Source: a virus
Taxonomy: Duplodnaviria; Heunggongvirae; Uroviricota; Caudoviricetes
IMG/VR virus record: IMGVR_UViG_2851982317_000005
Direction: 5' to 3' (one strand)
DNA: 44,895 nt
The notes under the pieces are model-generated. The model was not told where the DNA came from and did no database searches. It saw nothing but the letters and a program-made list of their open reading frames with translations. Position 1 is the first letter of the stretch; each line of letters starts with the position of its first letter. Shown in pieces: positions 4,532 to 43,561 of the stretch. The translations under genes and the position numbers were made by a program.

Positions 4532-4589
4532 AAAAAGGGCGGCAGAGCAGTCACGGAGTAAAACTGATACCGCCAAACGTCACCAGAAA
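4532..4589 (-). ncRNA. dicF: DicF small regulatory RNA (ftsZ-targeting sRNA of the dicB operon)
   Basis: Minus-strand sequence TTTCTGGTGACGTTTGGCGGTATCAGTTTTACTCCGTGACTGCTCTGCCGCCCTTTTT matches recalled DicF including 3' stem and U-run; sits between ydfC and dicB. Confidence 0.7.
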
Positions 4590-9656: not shown

Positions 9657-9867
9657 ATTAATGGGTTAACTATGTCGGTTAAACGACCAGCCAACTGAAA
9701 AAGCGGAAACCTGATTATAGGTTGCCAGATAAGGCAATAAGCTACCTGGCGCGGAACGGACTGATAAGTATGGGGAGTGTTTTACGATGAACCTTTAGAC
9801 TAAAGAGTTTGTAAGTAACCGGCTCATTTAAACCGTCTGGTCTGTTTCCTCCGGCTCTACAAAAATA

Positions 9868-10545
9868 ATGTCCATCATTTTTAATGGACACTATCGTATG
9901 AAACACCGGACCTGGATCACTGAAGCTTTACGTCTTCACTTTGAAGAACATTTACCCCGGGTTGTGGCCGGGCGTCGCCTGGGTGTACCAAAATCAACAG
10001 TTTGTAGTATGTTCGTGCGCTTTCGGAGAGCTGGCCTTTCGTGGCCTTTGCCCGCAGGCATGTCGGAGCAGGAACTTGATGCCTGCCTTTACGGACAATT
10101 TTCCACGGTACCAGTCGTACGTCCTGAAAGCACCGTTATATCCGAAGCCCCCGTGGTAAAAAAACGTCCCCGGCGGCCCAACTTCCCTTATGAGTTTAAA
10201 ATCGCCTTAGTGGAGCAGTCACTGCAGCCCGGAGCCTGTGTGGCGCAGATCGCCCGGGAAAACGGAATCAACGATAACCTGCTCTTCAACTGGCGCCATC
10301 AATACCGGAAAGGTGGCCTGCTGCCTTCCGGAAAAAATATGCCGGCACTGCTTCCCGTGACGTTAACGCCGGAGCCGGATAATAAAATCCCGGCCCCCGC
10401 ACAGGAACCAGAGCAGATAAATACACCGTCCGACAGTCTGTGTTGTGAGCTGGTTCTGCCGGCCGGAACTCTCAGGCTTAAAGGTAAACTGACGCCGGCG
10501 TTATTACAGACACTTATCCGCGAAATAAAAGGGAGCAGCCACTGA
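9868..10545 (+). CDS. tnpA: IS66-family accessory protein TnpA (orfA)
   Basis: Contains the conserved YEFKIALVEQSLQPGACVAQIARENGINDNLLFNWRHQY HTH region; ORF start may be N-terminally extended. Confidence 0.75.
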   Translation: MSIIFNGHYRMKHRTWITEALRLHFEEHLPRVVAGRRLGVPKSTVCSMFVRFRRAGLSWPLPAGMSEQELDACLYGQFSTVPVVRPESTVISEAPVVKKRPRRPNFPYEFKIALVEQSLQPGACVAQIARENGINDNLLFNWRHQYRKGGLLPSGKNMPALLPVTLTPEPDNKIPAPAQEPEQINTPSDSLCCELVLPAGTLRLKGKLTPALLQTLIREIKGSSH

Positions 10546-10892
10546 TGATATCTCTCCCTGCAGGTTCGCGTATCTGGCTGGTTGCAGGTATCACCGATAT
10601 GCGAAATGGCTTTAACGGCCTGGCATCAAAAGTTCAGAACGTCCTGAAGGATGACCCGTTCTCCGGACACCTGTTCATCTTCCGCGGACGCCGGGGTGAC
10701 CAGATAAAAGTGTTGTGGGCTGACAGTGACGGACTGTGCCTCTTCACCAAACGCCTGGAGCGGGGCCGCTTCGTCTGGCCAGTCACCCGTGACGGCAAGG
10801 TGCACCTTACTCCGGCTCAGTTATCCATGCTTCTTGAAGGTATCAACTGGAAGCACCCGAAACGAACGGAACGCGCTGGAATCCGCATATAA
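10545..10892 (+). CDS. tnpB: IS66-family TnpB (orfB)
   Basis: 115-aa ORF MISLPAGSRIWLVAGITDMRNGFNGL... typical IS66 Orf2; overlaps orfA stop. Confidence 0.85.
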   Translation: MISLPAGSRIWLVAGITDMRNGFNGLASKVQNVLKDDPFSGHLFIFRGRRGDQIKVLWADSDGLCLFTKRLERGRFVWPVTRDGKVHLTPAQLSMLLEGINWKHPKRTERAGIRI

Positions 10893-10911
10893 CCCGTTGT
10901 AAAGTGAGGAT

Positions 10912-12483
10912 ATGGACACCTCACTTGCTCATGAGAACGCCCGCCTGCGGGCACTGTTGCAGACGCAACAGGACACCATACGCCAGATGGCTGAATACAA
11001 CCGCCTGCTCTCACAGCGGGTGGCGGCTTATGCTTCTGAAATCAACCGGCTGAAGGCGCTGGTTGCGAAACTGCAGCGTATGCAGTTCGGTAAAAGCTCA
11101 GAAAAACTTCGTGCAAAAACCGAACGGCAGATACAGGAAGCACAGGAGCGAATCAGCGCACTTCAGGAAGAAATGGCGGAAACGCTGGGTGAGCAATATG
11201 ACCCGGTACTGCCATCCGCCCTGCGCCAGTCTTCAGCCCGTAAACCGTTACCGGCCTCACTTCCCCGTGAAACCCGGGTTATCCGGCCGGAAGAGGAATG
11301 CTGTCCTGCCTGTGGTGGTGAACTCAGTTCTCTGGGATGTGATGTGTCAGAGCAACTGGAGCTTATCAGCAGCGCCTTTAAGGTTATTGAAACACAACGT
11401 CCGAAACAGGCCTGTTGCCGGTGCGACCATATCGTGCAGGCACCAGTACCTTCAAAACCCATTGCACGCAGTTATGCCGGAGCGGGGCTTCTGGCCCATG
11501 TTGTCACCGGGAAATATGCAGACCATCTGCCGTTATACCGCCAGTCAGAAATATACCGTCGTCAGGGAGTGGAGCTGAGCCGTGCCACACTGGGGCGCTG
11601 GACAGGTGCTGTTGCTGAACTGCTGGAGCCGCTGTATGACGTCCTGCGCCAGTATGTGCTGATGCCCGGTAAAGTCCATGCTGATGATATCCCCGTCCCG
11701 GTCCAGGAGCCGGGCAGCGGTAAAACCCGGACAGCCCGGCTGTGGGTCTACGTCCGTGATGACCGTAACGCCGGTTCACAGATGCCCCCGGCGGTCTGGT
11801 TCGCGTACAGTCCGGACCGGAAAGGTATCCATCCACAAAATCACCTGGCCGGTTACAGCGGTGTGCTTCAGGCCGATGCTTACGGTGGTTACCGGGCGTT
11901 ATACGAATCCGGCAGAATAACGGAAGCCGCGTGTATGGCTCATGCCCGGAGAAAAATCCACGATGTGCATGCAAGAGCGCCCACCTACATCACCACGGAA
12001 GCCCTGCAGCGTATCGGTGAACTGTATGCCATCGAGGCAGAGGTCCGGGGCTGTTCAGCAGAACAGCGTCTGGCGGCAAGAAAAGCCAGAGCCGCGCCAC
12101 TGATGCAGTCACTGTATGACTGGATACAGCAACAGATGAAAACACTGTCGCGTCACTCAGATACGGCAAAAGCGTTCGCATACCTGCTGAAACAGTGGGA
12201 TGCACTGAACGTGTACTGCAGTAATGGCTGGGTGGAAATCGACAACAACATCGCAGAGAACGCCTTACGGGGAGTGGCCGTAGGCCGGAAAAACTGGATG
12301 TTCGCGGGTTCCGACAGCGGTGGTGAACATGCGGCGGTGTTGTACTCGCTGATCGGCACATGCCGTCTGAACAATGTGGAGCCAGAAAAGTGGCTGCGTT
12401 ACGTCATTGAACATATCCAGGACTGGCCGGCAAACCGGGTACGCGATCTGTTGCCCTGGAAAGTTGATCTGAGCTCTCAGTAA
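10912..12483 (+). CDS. tnpC: IS66-family transposase (orfC)
   Basis: 523-aa ORF with N-terminal coiled-coil/leucine zipper, CxxC zinc-finger region and DDE-type core typical of IS66 transposases. Confidence 0.85.
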
Positions 12484-12617
12484 ATATCAATACGGTTCTG
12501 ACGAGTCGCTTACGTTTGTAACGCTATGTAAGTGATTTTTTCTAGTTTAGATATTTATATGTCCGGCCAAATTGAGGTGTGTTTAAATGTAATTGCACAT
12601 TGATTGTAGGAGGAATA

Positions 12618-12797
12618 ATGAAAAACGCATTGCAGTTTTTGTTTGTTGCGTTCTGGTTGTTCGTATCATGTATGCCCATCATCTTCACAGCAAGGTATAT
12701 GGAAAAAGTTGATGTTTTGATATTAATATTTGGATATATAAATGCCCTTTTTTTAGGGGTGTTCATGGCGGTCATGTGCATTGAATACTGGCGGTAA
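12618..12797 (+). CDS. Small hydrophobic membrane protein (59 aa, two predicted TM segments)
   Basis: AGGAGG ribosome-binding site 6 nt upstream of ATG; product MKNALQFLFVAFWLFVSCMPIIF...LFLGVFMAVMCIEYWR. Confidence 0.45.
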   Translation: MKNALQFLFVAFWLFVSCMPIIFTARYMEKVDVLILIFGYINALFLGVFMAVMCIEYWR

Positions 12798-12998
12798 ATA
12801 CAGCGAACTCCATTGGTTTAGTTGGATATTTATTGTGCTGGACAAAAACGGTTTGCGGGGAAATCTTAGTTAAGTAGAATGACTGCGGGTGCTTGAGGCT
12901 ATCTGCCTCGGGCATGAACACCAACGGCAGATAGAGAAAAGCCCCAGGTAACATTACGCGTCCTGCAAGACGTTTAACATTAATCTGAGGCCATATCT

Positions 12999-13058
12999 AT
13001 GCGACACATAGAGATTAGCCTCTTACGGACCGAAAGGTCAAGGAGAAGCAGGCTATGA
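12999..13058 (+). CDS. mok: mok-like leader ORF translationally coupled to hok
   Basis: 19-codon ORF whose TGA stop overlaps the hok ATG (ATGA); inverted repeats in the leader. Confidence 0.35.
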   Translation: MRHIEISLLRTERSRRSRL

Positions 13059-13210
13059 AGCAGCAAAAGGCGATGTTAATCGCCCTGATCGTCATCTGTT
13101 TAACCGTCATAGTGACGGCACTGGTAACGAGGAAAGACCTCTGCGAGGTACGAATCCGAACCGGCCAGACGGAGGTCGCTGTCTTCACAGTCTACGAACC
13201 TGAGGAGTAA
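13055..13210 (+). CDS. hok: Hok/Gef-family type I toxin (HokD/RelF-like)
   Basis: 51-aa product MKQQKAMLIALIVICLTVIVTALVTRKDLCEVRIRTGQTEVAVFTAYEPEE, manually translated; downstream hairpin plus U-run at 13279-13304. Confidence 0.85.
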   Translation: MKQQKAMLIALIVICLTVIVTALVTRKDLCEVRIRTGQTEVAVFTVYEPEE

Positions 13211-13557
13211 GAGACTTGGCGAGGGAGAAATCCCTCGCCACCTCTGATGTGTCAGGCATCCTCAATGCACCCGCACTTAACCCGCTTCGGCGGGTTTATT
13301 TTATCTGTAAATATTTTTATAAAAATAATGCCCACACACAGCATAAAACAAAAAGTATCACAGATAAAAAAGGAGCGTAATGTGCAGATTTGTTGTTTTC
13401 CATATTTACTCACTTTAACATAATCAATATTGATATGGTTGTTGTTTCGGTGGTTTCAAACGAGATGTTATGGTGATCTGGTAAAATTGCATAACATTAA
13501 AATTTAATTTATCTAATCGCTTTTAATAATAAGCGTTGTGTTTATCCCAACAATCTG

Positions 13558-13948: not shown

Positions 13949-14997
13949 GTGCGGGTATTACTTCGACCTGTTCTGGTACCGGAACTCGGGCTGGTGATCG
14001 TTAAGCCGGGCCGTGAATCCATGCCGGTATTCCACAATACCCGGTTACTGGTGGAGCCGGAACCGAAAAGCATGCGTAATCTGCCGTCCGGGGTCGTTCC
14101 TGCCGCTCGCCAGCCGCTGGTGGAAGACAAAACATTGCTGCCGTTTTTCAGTAACGCACGGGTGATTCGTGCTGCTGGTGGTGCTGGTGCATTGTCTGAC
14201 TGGCTGTTGCGCCATATTAAATCCTGCCAGTGGCCACACGGCGATTATCATCACAGCGAAACCGTCATTCACCGTTATGGTACCGGCGCAATGGTGTTGT
14301 GCTGGCACTGCGACAACCAGCTGCGTGACCAGACATCCGAATCACTCGAGCAACTTGCTCATCAAAACCTGTCAGCATGGATGATTGACGTCATCGGTCA
14401 CGCAATAAGCGGTACGCAGGAGCGTGAATTATCTCTGGCTGAATTATCCTGGTGGGCGGTCCGCAATCAGGTGGCGGACGCGCTACCGGAAGCGGTATTA
14501 CGTCGTTCGCTGGGGTTGCGTGCGGAAAAATCCGCTCAATGTACCGTGAAAGCGACATCGTACCGGGAGAGCAGACCGCCACCAGCATACTGAAACAGCG
14601 CACAAAAAATCTTGCGCCGCTGCCTCACGCCCACCAGCAACAGAACCCACCACAGGAAAAGACGGTGGTCAGCATTGCCGTTGATCCTGAGTCTCCGGAA
14701 TCTTTTATGAAACGACCTAAACGTCGCCGCTGGGTTAACGAGAAATACACACGCTGGGTGAAGACACAGCCGTGTGCGTGTTGTGGTAAGCCAGCCGACG
14801 ATCCCCATCACCTGATTGGTCATGGTCAGGGCGGAATGGGGACAAAATCTCACGATATTTTCACGCTACCGCTGTGTCGGGAGCATCACAACGAGCTTCA
14901 TGCGGATCCGCTGGCGTTCGAAGAAAAGCATGGTTCTCAGGTTGATTTAATTTTTCGTTTTCTTGATCACGCCTTTGCAACTGGCGTGCTTGGGTAA
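13949..14997 (+). pseudogene. YdfU-like (DUF968-type, HNH-like zinc finger) gene split by a frameshift near 14515-14535
   Basis: Two overlapping ORFs in different frames (13949-14593 and 14452-14997) jointly span 1049 nt, about one 349-codon gene minus one base; C-terminal part has CxxC...HH motifs; A5 run at the junction. Confidence 0.5.
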
Positions 14998-16345: not shown

Positions 16346-16421
16346 GGCCCTTTAGCTCAGTGGTGAGAGCGAGCGACTCATAATCGCCAGGTCGCTGGTT
16401 CAAATCCAGCAAGGGCCACCA
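16346..16421 (+). tRNA. ileZ: tRNA with CAU anticodon, ileX/ileZ-like (tRNA-Ile2)
   Basis: Manual cloverleaf: acceptor GGCCCTT/AAGGGCC, anticodon loop CTCATAA, T-loop TTCAAAT, encoded CCA; closely resembles recalled E. coli ileX. Confidence 0.75.
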
Positions 16422-16521: not shown

Positions 16522-16595
16522 GCGTTGTTAGCTCAGCCGGACAGAGCAATTGCCTTCTAAGCAATCGGTCACTGGTTCGAATCCAGTACAGCGCG
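16522..16595 (+). tRNA. argO: tRNA-Arg (UCU anticodon)
   Basis: Manual cloverleaf: acceptor GCGTTGT/ACAGCGC (one G-U), anticodon stem ATTGC/GCAAT, loop CTTCTAA, T-loop TTCGAAT. Confidence 0.75.
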
Positions 16596-17229: not shown

Positions 17230-17454
17230 CCGGGTATCAGTTAGCGGGAGAAATTTTTAAATACTTCACAATTCAGGCGGTTGACTGTTGTCTGGTTTGC
17301 GGGGAGTTTGTTAAAAGAAACTGGCATGGTGAATCCCCCTGTGCGGAGGGGCAATCAGCGAGTAGGTATATGGGATAATCGCGGATTCAGGTGCTGGTAC
17401 TGAATTCACCGGGAGGCACCCGGCACCATGCAATGGCACATAGCGCCACTCTCC

Positions 17455-17490
17455 AGCCCCTCTCCGGAGGGGCTGTTTATATTGATTTTG
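17455..17490 (+). terminator. Hairpin terminator between convergent moron genes
   Basis: agcccctctccggaggggct followed by gtttatattgatttt. Confidence 0.45.
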
Positions 17491-42977: not shown

Positions 42978-43561
42978 TGGCATTCAGAATGAGTGAACAA
43001 GCACGGACCATAAAAATTTATAATCTGCTGGCCGGAACTAATGAATTTATTGGTGAAGGTGACGCATATATTCCGCCTCATACAGGTCTGCCAGCAAACA
43101 GTACCGATATTGCACCGCCAGATATTCCGGCTGGCTTTGTGGCTGTTTTCAACAGTGATGAGGCATCGTGGCATCTCGTTGAAGACCATCGGGGTAAAAC
43201 GGTTTATGACGTAGCGTCAGGGGACGAGTTATTTATTTCTGAACTCGGTCCGTTACCGGAAAATGTTACCTGGTTATCGCCGGAAGGGGAGTTTCAGAAG
43301 TGGAACGGCACAGCCTGGGTGAAGGATACGGAAGCAGAAAAACTGTTCCGGATCCGGGAGGCGGAAGAAACAAAAAACAACCTGATGCAGGTAGCCAGTG
43401 AGCATATTGCGCCGCTTCAGGATGCTGCAGATCTGGAAATTGCAACGGAGGAAGAAACCTCATTGCTGGAAGCCTGGAAAAAGTATCGGGTGTTGCTGAA
43501 CCGTGTTGATACATCAACTGCACCTGATATTGAGTGGCCTACGAACCCTGTCAGGGAGTAA
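42977..43561 (+). CDS. tfa: Tail fibre assembly protein (Tfa)
   Basis: 194-aa ORF overlapping the stf stop; typical Tfa N-terminus ([48 protein letters not shown]). Confidence 0.85.

Follow-up and report, generated by a model that had tools for sequence, protein, structure and literature searches.

Locus and prophage setting

Positions 12852-13304 of the 44,895-nucleotide window (the whole stretch of viral DNA analyzed here) very probably hold a complete hokD-type hok/mok/sok cassette located in the nin region of an Escherichia coli prophage that is lambdoid and Qin-like. The cassette would act by a mechanism like those of plasmid R1 and phage Sp5, and an upstream open reading frame of 59 codons (ORF59) would be a separate, probably genuine gene that lies outside the toxin-antitoxin mechanism. 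Judged by its sequence, the plus strand from 12887 to 13304 encodes a complete transcript of a hok-type type I toxin-antitoxin system. The first-pass annotation, made from the sequence alone, had proposed a hok/mok type I locus with mRNA fold-back and a Sok antisense RNA on the minus strand. This proposal is upheld by Pfam, PHROG and Rfam matches, by predicted tac and fbi elements, and by 91% DNA identity to hokW-sokW, and every element that it named lies where it had placed it. The hok/sok module is a well-known, already described system, of which this is an ordinary complete copy. [quoted passage not shown]

The Hok toxin gene

The hok coding sequence (13055-13210, plus strand), preceded by the Shine-Dalgarno (SD) sequence AAGGAG at 13040-13045, encodes a HokD-type toxin of 51 amino acids, and PGAP names the gene hokD. 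The first-pass annotation had assigned this frame to the Hok family. Consistent with that, the protein covers the whole profile (positions 1-42 of 42) of Pfam PF01848 HOK_GEF at 78.6 bits (E = 2.6e-22; the score cut-off is 22 bits), and it also matches PHROG 251, 'MokW-like host killing' (2.8e-32). It has the layout of the family, which comprises about 50 amino acids with a hydrophobic N-terminal helix (residues 7-23, LIALIVICLTVIVTALV) and a polar C-terminal part with a conserved Cys (C30). The codon of Y47 lies in the context TAC-G, the motif reported as edited to Cys in hokB-E (cited in bioRxiv 10.1101/2025.08.07.668861). Among hok variants, 10 changes are synonymous and 8 are non-synonymous (dN/dS about 0.26, P = 0.004), a pattern indicating that the coding sequence is under purifying selection. 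Expression of HokD is toxic (bioRxiv 10.1101/2025.08.07.668861). HokW is toxic as well and is neutralized by sokW transcribed from its own promoter, and both hokW and sokW respond to mitomycin C induction (PMC8621323).

Ends and fold of the hok mRNA

The full-length hok (mok-hok) mRNA is predicted to be about 418 nt long (12887-13304, plus strand), from the first position of a match to Rfam RF01794 to the intrinsic terminator. Rfam had been named in the first-pass annotation as a check on the locus. The leader at 12887-13057 matches RF01794 ('sok') over the full model (1-157) at 100.8 bits (E = 8e-22; gathering score, 59 bits), whereas the minus strand reaches 15 bits only, so that the model evidently describes the hok-sense leader, ending at the hok AUG. 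A low-threshold Rfam search of 12480-13450 gave nothing further that was credible. The terminal hairpin, also seen earlier, was recovered by the terminator scan; the terminator (13279-13304, plus strand) consists of a 7-bp stem with five G-C pairs (13279-13296) followed by the T-rich tail TATTTTAT.

The minimum free energy (MFE) fold of the full-length mRNA has -174.9 kcal/mol (z = -7.98 versus shuffles). In this fold the tac element (GGGTGCTTGAGG, 12887-12898, plus strand) serves as the 5′ fold-back partner of the fbi element (CCTCAATGCACCC, 13260-13272, plus strand). The 12 tac/fbi pairs are paired in 100% of cells among 81 distinct relatives, with only G-U changes, and 10 of the 12 are invariant; since the relatives are too alike and tac/fbi is nearly invariant, these figures are no covariation proof of the pairing. 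When 13259-13304 is removed in silico, the 5′ end of the mRNA refolds into a local hairpin and tac/fbi is lost.

Two inverted repeats had been read from the leader by eye, CTATCTGCC (12899-12907) with GGCAGATAG (12926-12934) and ATCTATG (12995-13001) with CATAGAGAT (13007-13015), and both stems are present in the Rfam consensus and in the MFE fold. The first pair forms the arms of the 5′ leader hairpin (12899-12934, plus strand), for which 99.5% of cells are paired among the 81 distinct relatives and one pair has changed on both sides. The MFE fold contains two further plus-strand hairpins. A tetraloop hairpin, GACC-GAAA-GGTC (13028-13039), stands just 5′ of the hok SD; the relatives' version is TGCC-GAAA-GGCA, with another 4-bp stem and an identical loop. 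The other, GGCGAGGGA-GAAA-TCCCTCGCC (13218-13239), lies in the 3′-UTR and, by analogy with R1, is likely to be the protective 3′ stem of the processed mRNA. One of its pairs is G-U in 37 relatives, A-U in 33 and G-C in 10.

The putative hok promoter (12852-12880, plus strand) combines a weak -35 element, TTTGCG/TTGCGG (12852-12858), with the -10 element TAGAAT (12875-12880), which ends 7 nt 5′ of the mRNA start. This -10 element is invariant or nearly so in the 81 distinct relatives, and the sequence further upstream varies between loci. The putative sok promoter (13012-13041, minus strand) has the -10 element TAATCT (13017-13012; a 3/6 match), an 18-nt spacer and the -35 element TTGACC (13041-13036). 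Both promoters appear as weak matches, and a generic sigma-70 scan of 12480-13420 reported no promoter. Because the known promoters of hok and sok likewise escape the scan, it is not counted as evidence either way.

The predicted Sok antisense RNA and a hypervariable block

Sok had been expected on the minus strand but left without limits. By homology with the experimentally characterized hokW-sokW of phage 933W/Sp5 (91% DNA identity), it maps to about 13005→12937, with putative ends accurate to within a few nucleotides. The predicted RNA of about 69 nt carries a 13-nt single-stranded 5′ tail, GUCGCAUAGAUAU, followed by a long hairpin and UUUUCU, and its fold has -26.4 kcal/mol (z = -3.98). 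It aligns with the annotated sokW of phage 933W, and the start site and the -10 element coincide. The sokW RNA is visible on Northern blots and acts as an antitoxin, and mutation of its -10 hexamer (primers YO-421/422) abolished the antitoxin activity (PMC8621323). It is this hexamer, TAACCT, with which TAATCT in the window aligns.

It is also evident that near-identical cassettes vary mostly within 20 nt (12992-13011), which comprise the Sok 5′ tail, its target around the mok AUG, and the spacer that separates the -10 element from the start site of sok. The mean column entropy of this block is 0.74 bit, versus 0.03-0.12 bit in the adjoining conserved parts, and at least eight types of it are found in the 81 distinct relatives.

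The mok frame and the integrity of the cassette

A coupled leader frame of 19 codons had been reported ahead of hok, and it is indeed present. The mok frame (12999-13058, plus strand; MRHIEISLLRTERSRRSRL) begins at the conserved mok ATG (12999) behind the conserved SD sequence GAGG (12987-12990), passes through the hok SD out of frame with hok, and terminates at the hok start codon, its TGA (13056-13058) overlapping the hok ATG as ATGA. In 933W, mokW extends hokW in frame and has 70 codons. The window differs from mokW by a 2-nt deletion and a 1-nt insertion, so that mok is read here in a shifted frame, unlike the usual form with its 70 codons in phase with hok. Mutagenesis of R1 has shown that ribosomes need to read mok no farther than the hok SD and start (PMC9841398), and by this analogy the 19 codons here are as much of mok as R1 requires. 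Since this mok does not share the frame of the common 70-codon form, mok-hok coupling in this cassette is argued by analogy with the R1 stop-codon data. The window-type mok was found in 48 sampled loci, which represent 19 distinct sequences in several flanking contexts, and hok is intact in 18 of these 19. This common natural allele, ending on the hok ATG, can be regarded as a natural equivalent of the stop-codon experiments done with R1.

The same frameshift could be taken to uncouple hok, and the cassette would then be a decaying, non-functional copy amid prophage debris. This is improbable in our judgment. The prophage does look defective, with an IS66 element 104 nt upstream of ORF59 and a frameshifted DUF968 gene. 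Moreover, about 24 of 80 related loci have an insertion sequence precisely at the hok ATG, so that inactivation is common, and the chromosomal hok loci tested earlier gave no post-segregational killing (cited in bioRxiv 10.1101/2025.08.07.668861). However, the altered mok still begins with its own ATG and SD and ends where the R1 data place the limit of the requirement, and an allele shared by 19 distinct sequences with hok intact in nearly all of them does not look like debris. The purifying selection indicated for hok also argues against decay, as do the regulatory elements, all of which are intact as judged from Rfam, the MFE fold and the 81 distinct relatives.

Comparison with known hok systems

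The closest characterized system is hokW-mokW-sokW of the Stx2 phages 933W/Sp5 (Takada et al. 2021, PMC8621323), in which the same cassette is 90.8% identical in DNA across about 450 bp; 47 of the 51 Hok residues are the same in HokW (92%). The two loci share the leader, tac/fbi, the mok start and the positions of the sok -10 element and start site, and both lie on the early-right strand of a lambdoid prophage. They differ in the form of mok and in the Sok 5′ tail and target, which depart from sokW at most positions and thus make cross-recognition doubtful. The intrinsic terminator is kept in the window, whereas 933W diverges after fbi; 933W also lacks ORF59 and has different upstream neighbors.

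The Qin prophage of E. coli K-12 carries the same toxin gene, hokD (relF), with the same 3′ UTR. Between the hok SD and the terminator the two sequences are almost identical, and the two loci have the neighbors rem, ydfU (DUF968) and the Q antiterminator in common. In K-12 the homology ends just 5′ of the hok SD, where relBE abuts, so K-12 hokD is without leader, mok and sok. By this comparison, the Qin-like prophage of the window, with its IS66 insertion, has the full-length regulated version of K-12 hokD.

Plasmid R1 hok/mok/sok (parB) has the same architecture, with the tac/fbi fold-back, the GAGG mok SD and 19 mok codons before the hok start, and its Sok, like the one predicted here, is a short antisense RNA with a 5′ tail and a terminator hairpin. 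In R1, mok continues beyond the hok start, whereas mok in the window stops there. R1 hok/sok resides on a plasmid, and its role in post-segregational killing has been demonstrated; R1 Hok and HokW are only 44% identical (PMC8621323).

Proposed mechanism

Following plasmid R1 hok/sok and phage Sp5 hokW-sokW, the complete cassette would work as follows. A weak promoter would give the stable mRNA, in which tac is clamped to fbi, and the mok SD would thereby be sequestered and the RNA silent. Slow trimming of the 3′ end would strip off fbi and let the 5′ end refold, after which the mok start would be open either to ribosomes or to Sok. Sok would be a short-lived antisense RNA whose 5′ tail covers the mok AUG and SD; as long as it is present, the duplex would block mok translation and be degraded, with RNase III cleaving it. 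Sok may be lost through loss of the element, transcription shut-off or prophage induction, the last as shown for sokW. Ribosomes would then read through the 19 codons of mok, past the hok SD, and on terminating at the hok ATG they would initiate hok, whose product would depolarize the inner membrane.

ORF59 and its paralog

ORF59 (12618-12797, plus strand) had been described as a two-transmembrane frame with a strong ribosome-binding site, and the frame is indeed present. The canonical, exposed SD sequence AGGAGG (12608-12613) lies 4 nt 5′ of the ATG, and the small, hydrophobic product of 59 amino acids has two predicted transmembrane helices, modeled by AlphaFold at residues 2-26 and 32-58 (mean pLDDT 72). 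The frame belongs to a separate AT-rich module (12514 to about 12870) upstream of the hok cassette, with a GC content of 37% versus 50% for the window, and it is not part of the cassette. It is found in roughly 30% of complete E. coli genomes.

A word-indexed protein search returned only relatives at 71% identity or more. It took an exhaustive HMMER search to find a paralog elsewhere in E. coli, in the ttcA-uspF island (a UniRef A0A2S5RMW9-type 'hypothetical protein'), with 59 amino acids and 41% identity without gaps, present in about 20% of complete E. coli genomes. The two have W13 and the motifs SCxPII, FGxxNAL and ExWR-stop in common, and both stand in prophage-derived DNA adjoining hok-derived sequence. 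The paralog differs in having a weaker SD and a fixed chromosomal site by an integrase remnant with no intact prophage. A scan of GTDB genomes with the family alignment yielded only two Shigella loci and one spurious Asticcacaulis match, and tblastn against phages and plasmids yielded only the same two subfamilies. A literature search with peptide strings of ORF59 gave no match.

Is ORF59 a chance open frame in a non-coding AT-rich spacer? We consider this rather unlikely. There is some reason to ask, since the variants within its own group comprise one synonymous and seven non-synonymous changes (dN/dS about 1.7; with only eight variable sites, uninformative or adverse), and frameshifts recur in its T7 run, with frameshifted and truncated forms in the protein database. 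In addition, no family was found in Pfam, PHROG, NCBIfam or PADLOC, PGAP/RefSeq annotates nothing there in 1584 genomes, and phage records call the opposite strand. A chance frame would, however, hardly be expected to have an ungapped paralog with the same length, start and stop. Identity between the two is 58/73/47% by codon position, with pN (0.33) below pS (0.72), a pattern absent in shifted frames, so their divergence appears to follow a coding pattern; the frame on the opposite strand has two stops in the paralog. Furthermore, the paralog is intact in 1045 genomes despite the decay of the adjoining hok, of which a 66-nt pseudogene fragment remains 55 nt downstream. Together with the canonical SD of ORF59, these results suggest that ORF59 is probably a real gene, and as such it deserves annotation.

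Possible roles of ORF59

A broader proposal, which we regard as quite doubtful, is that ORF59 founds an unrecognized, Escherichia-restricted family of two-helix inner-membrane proteins, omitted by RefSeq and annotated on the wrong strand in phage records. Its association with prophage hok cassettes would be old enough for its members to have diverged to 41% identity, and the family could act with Hok (e.g., tuning Hok-assisted lysis or release on induction) or as a prophage exclusion or host-modulating factor. As a separate part of the same proposal, the 20-nt hypervariable block would be a specificity cassette; if true, several hok/sok copies could share one genome and remain free of cross-talk.

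A functional tie of ORF59 to hok, as a second membrane toxin or as a membrane partner or modulator of Hok, is unlikely: the hok leader follows ORF59 in 80 of 80 sampled loci, the paralog likewise adjoins a hok remnant (so that the adjacency is old), and the small hydrophobic frame lies on the same strand with no predicted terminator between it and hok, but at least six unrelated sequence contexts are found upstream of the hok cassette, ORF59 is present in only about 15% of sampled hok loci, the paralog is maintained where hok is dead and thus does not need Hok, there are no matches to defense-system or toxin families, and a low-threshold Rfam search and a terminator scan around ORF59 found no RNA family, terminator, antisense unit or leader structure typical of type I systems. 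The preferred reading remains that of a separate, probably genuine gene next to a complete hok cassette.

ORF59 was also considered as a phage holin and rejected, as it has no Pfam or PHROG match and the prophage has its own lysis cassette (class II holin, YdfR and lysozyme) about 5.4 kb downstream. When the ORF59 model was compared with viral structures, the fold search returned nothing beyond generic helical hairpins, none of them significant (E ≥ 0.79). Similarly rejected was a minus-strand frame of 79 amino acids (12542-12781), which lacks an SD and, in 6 of the 22 sequences that are distinct, is interrupted by a nonsense variant, in addition to its two stops in the paralog. This frame appears in phage records as 'hornerin' or 'hypothetical', and the strand that deposited phage records annotate here is the one opposite to ORF59.

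A complete hok/sok cassette

The locus is a known system that the first-pass annotation identified correctly: RefSeq annotates the module as hokD, and its closest relative has been characterised experimentally. The present analysis adds the coordinates of Sok, the nature of the mok allele, a hypervariable putative recognition block and an argument for annotating the upstream ORF59. The hok-type toxin proposed at 13055-13210 is a 51-aa ORF that matches Pfam HOK_GEF (78.6 bits, threshold 22) and also PHROG 251, "MokW-like host killing". Variants of this coding sequence comprise 10 synonymous and 8 non-synonymous changes (dN/dS ~0.26, p = 0.004). The codon for Tyr47 is TAC followed by G (13193-13196), and this TACG is invariant in 81 distinct related hok cassettes from IMG/VR; in hokB-E mRNAs, TACG is the motif at which TadA is reported to edit A to I, turning Tyr into Cys (bioRxiv 10.1101/2025.08.07.668861).

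An Rfam search for Sok and hok-family elements matched the whole RF01794 model at 12887-13057 on the plus strand, scoring 100.8 bits (gathering threshold 59). The match stops at the hok AUG and the minus strand gives only 15 bits, so this "sok" model represents the hok-sense leader and not the antisense RNA, and using it to assign strands would misplace Sok onto the opposite strand. Sok itself runs antisense to just part of the region matched by RF01794 ("sok antitoxin"). Both inverted repeats quoted in the first-pass annotation lie where it placed them, and the Rfam alignment as well as the thermodynamic fold show them as stems. The terminal hairpin of that annotation was recovered by a terminator scan as a 7-bp G+C-rich stem (13279-13296) followed by a T-rich tail.

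The whole RNA (12887-13304) folds at -174.9 kcal/mol (z = -7.98 against dinucleotide shuffles). In the thermodynamic fold, its first 12 nucleotides, GGGUGCUUGAGG (12887-12898), pair with CCUCAAUGCACCC at 13260-13272, which corresponds to the tac/fbi fold-back described for R1 hok (summarised in PMC9841398). The helix is paired in all 81 related cassettes, with G-U wobbles as the only changes; this is consistent with a tac/fbi helix but, with 10 of the 12 pairs invariant, does not amount to proof by covariation. One pair of a 3′-UTR hairpin at 13218-13239 is seen as G-U, A-U and G-C, and this hairpin probably serves as the 3′ stem that protects the processed RNA. In silico removal of the last 46 nucleotides deprived the 5′ end of its partner, and the prediction then showed it folded into a local hairpin, a modelled refolding in the direction that the R1 model requires. 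The -10 element TAGAAT (12875-12880) is kept in all relatives, and at least six unrelated sequence contexts are found upstream of ~12870, which places the start of the cassette near its own -10 to -20 region.

The K-12 Qin prophage carries the order ydfU-rem-hokD-relE-relB. Between the hok SD and the terminator its hokD is nearly identical to the window, but the alignment breaks directly upstream of the SD. Thus, the window holds the complete, regulated form, whereas K-12 hokD, third in line behind relBE, lacks both promoter and Sok.

Predicted Sok RNA and a hypervariable block

In phage 933W, hokW, mokW and sokW are annotated, with ~91% identity in the alignment with the window. HokW is toxic and is neutralised by sokW, a 71-nucleotide RNA expressed from its own promoter; a promoter-less sokW mutant gives no protection (Takada et al., PMC8621323). 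Transfer of the sokW coordinates places Sok at 13005 to 12937 on the minus strand, both ends being putative. The window hexamer TAATCT (13017-13012, minus strand) aligns with TAACCT, the hexamer altered by mutagenic primers in the sokW study (Takada et al., PMC8621323), and TTGACC (13041-13036) lies an 18-nucleotide spacer away. RNA starting at 13005 folds into a 13-nucleotide free 5′ tail and a long hairpin followed by UUUUCU (-26.4 kcal/mol, z = -3.98). The tail is complementary to 12993-13005, including the mok AUG, and an arm of the hairpin covers the mok SD.

Across the 81 cassettes, alignment columns of the leader, Sok hairpin, sok promoter, CDS and fbi have a mean entropy of 0.03-0.12 bit, but those of 12992-13011 have a mean of 0.74 bit, equal to the level of unrelated flanking DNA. 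This block comprises the Sok 5′ tail, the target of that tail and the 6 nucleotides between the sok start site and the -10 element, and at least eight types of it occur. From this pattern we infer that the block may set Sok/hok specificity among the several copies in a genome.

The mok allele and inactivation of hok

The coupled leader ORF reported at 12999-13058 indeed has 19 codons, with its TGA overlapping the hok ATG. In most of the relatives, 933W included, mok has 70 codons and amounts to hok plus 19 additional in-frame N-terminal codons. The window allele carries a 2-nucleotide deletion right after the mok ATG and a 1-nucleotide insertion in a GAAA-tetraloop hairpin, so that the ATG-initiated frame runs 19 codons out of frame. 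At the insertion, the hairpin TGCC-GAAA-GGCA becomes GACC-GAAA-GGTC, which still has a 4-bp stem. The frame traverses the hok SD (13040-13045) and stops at 13056-13058 on the hok ATG. In R1, mok translation proved to be needed up to the hok SD/start and dispensable beyond, as shown by saturation mutagenesis (PMC9841398); the window frame extends as far as this start. The allele is no one-off lesion: the 48 sampled loci that carry it comprise 19 distinct sequences, set in more than one kind of flanking DNA, and 18 of these sequences retain an intact hok.

In about 24 of 80 sampled loci with the ORF59 module, homology to the window ends exactly at the hok ATG (13056) and an insertion sequence follows (e.g., at ~position 1940 in L054, L056-L071 and similar loci, and at 3015-4328 in L173). 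Phage PhiR42_1 labels the inserted sequence "mobile element protein" and "transposase". Inactivation of hok by IS insertion has thus recurred, with the leader and sok left intact.

ORF59, a predicted small membrane protein

The 59-aa ORF at 12618-12797 lies in an AT-rich module (36% G+C vs 52% in the hok cassette) that is present in 1584 of 5426 complete genomes and annotated by PGAP in none. No family matches to ORF59 were found in Pfam, PHROG, NCBIfam or PADLOC. In favour of a gene, an exhaustive HMMER search detected a 59-aa paralog (41% identity, zero gaps). The paralog maps to the Rac attachment region, flanked by ttcA and uspF, next to an integrase fragment, and 1045 of the 5426 genomes carry it, again unannotated. 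ORF59 and the paralog are identical at 58%, 73% and 47% of first, second and third codon positions, respectively, and divergence is 0.33 at non-synonymous and 0.72 at synonymous sites, a pattern absent in shifted frames. An AlphaFold model gives a two-helix hairpin (pLDDT 72), with no specific matches in a fold search. Counting against a gene are the lack of family matches, the within-group variants (1 synonymous vs 7 non-synonymous) and a run of seven T (12748-12754) that is a recurrent frameshift site. On balance, ORF59 is likely to be a real gene, with a small membrane protein as its predicted product. Several database variants frameshifted at the T run (at least 57 member sequences) encode a 55-aa product without the end of helix 2, and could reflect real phase-type variation or sequencing error. 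An antisense ORF (12542-12781, minus strand) has two stops in the paralog, and the comparison favours the plus-strand ORF59; phages vB_EcoS-640R1, vB_EcoS-813R8 and PhiR42_1 label it "hornerin" or "hypothetical protein".

The hok leader follows the module in all 80 sampled loci, but the module is present at just ~15% of sampled hok loci, so ORF59 is a neighbour of the cassette rather than a component. At 55 nucleotides downstream of the paralog lies a 66-nucleotide hok fragment (80% identity, in-frame stop), which indicates that the ORF59-hok adjacency is old. In this small prophage remnant (L168, 5001-5300, the ttcA-uspF island), the order is integrase fragment, intact paralog, hok pseudogene fragment and ABC-3 permease fragments; the ORF is retained where the adjoining hok is dead. 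A functional tie of ORF59 to Hok is conceivable, unsupported and improbable.

Prophage setting

The E. coli E2528-C1 chromosome is 100% identical to 12484-13400, and similar DNA is found in 4743 of 5426 complete E. coli genomes (median 2, maximum 10 places per genome). RefSeq annotation surrounds the segment with a Qin/Rac-like lambdoid prophage in the order YdaT-family gene, DUF977 gene, IS66-family element (tnpA, tnpB, transposase), hokD, rem-like gene, frameshifted DUF968 gene (ydfU), rusA, Q antiterminator, two tRNAs and a holin/YdfR/lysozyme cassette. A relative without the interruption served to delimit a complete IS66-family element (tnpA, tnpB, ISCro1-like transposase) at 9815-12513 in the nin region, flanked by the 8-bp target duplication GTTTGTAA (9807-9814 and 12514-12521). 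This element cuts ORF59, hok and Q off from the early-right operon, which makes it probable that the prophage is defective. The ydfU-like DUF968 gene (13949-14997), downstream of the rem-like gene, consists of two ORFs and is frameshifted according to PGAP, another sign of prophage decay. Rfam also matched DicF sRNA (4537-4588, minus strand), STnc100 (17295-17484) and IS009 (43320-43518), both on the plus strand, and two plus-strand tRNAs (16346-16418 and 16522-16595) downstream of the Q antiterminator gene, all of which are typical of Qin-like or Stx-like lambdoid prophages.
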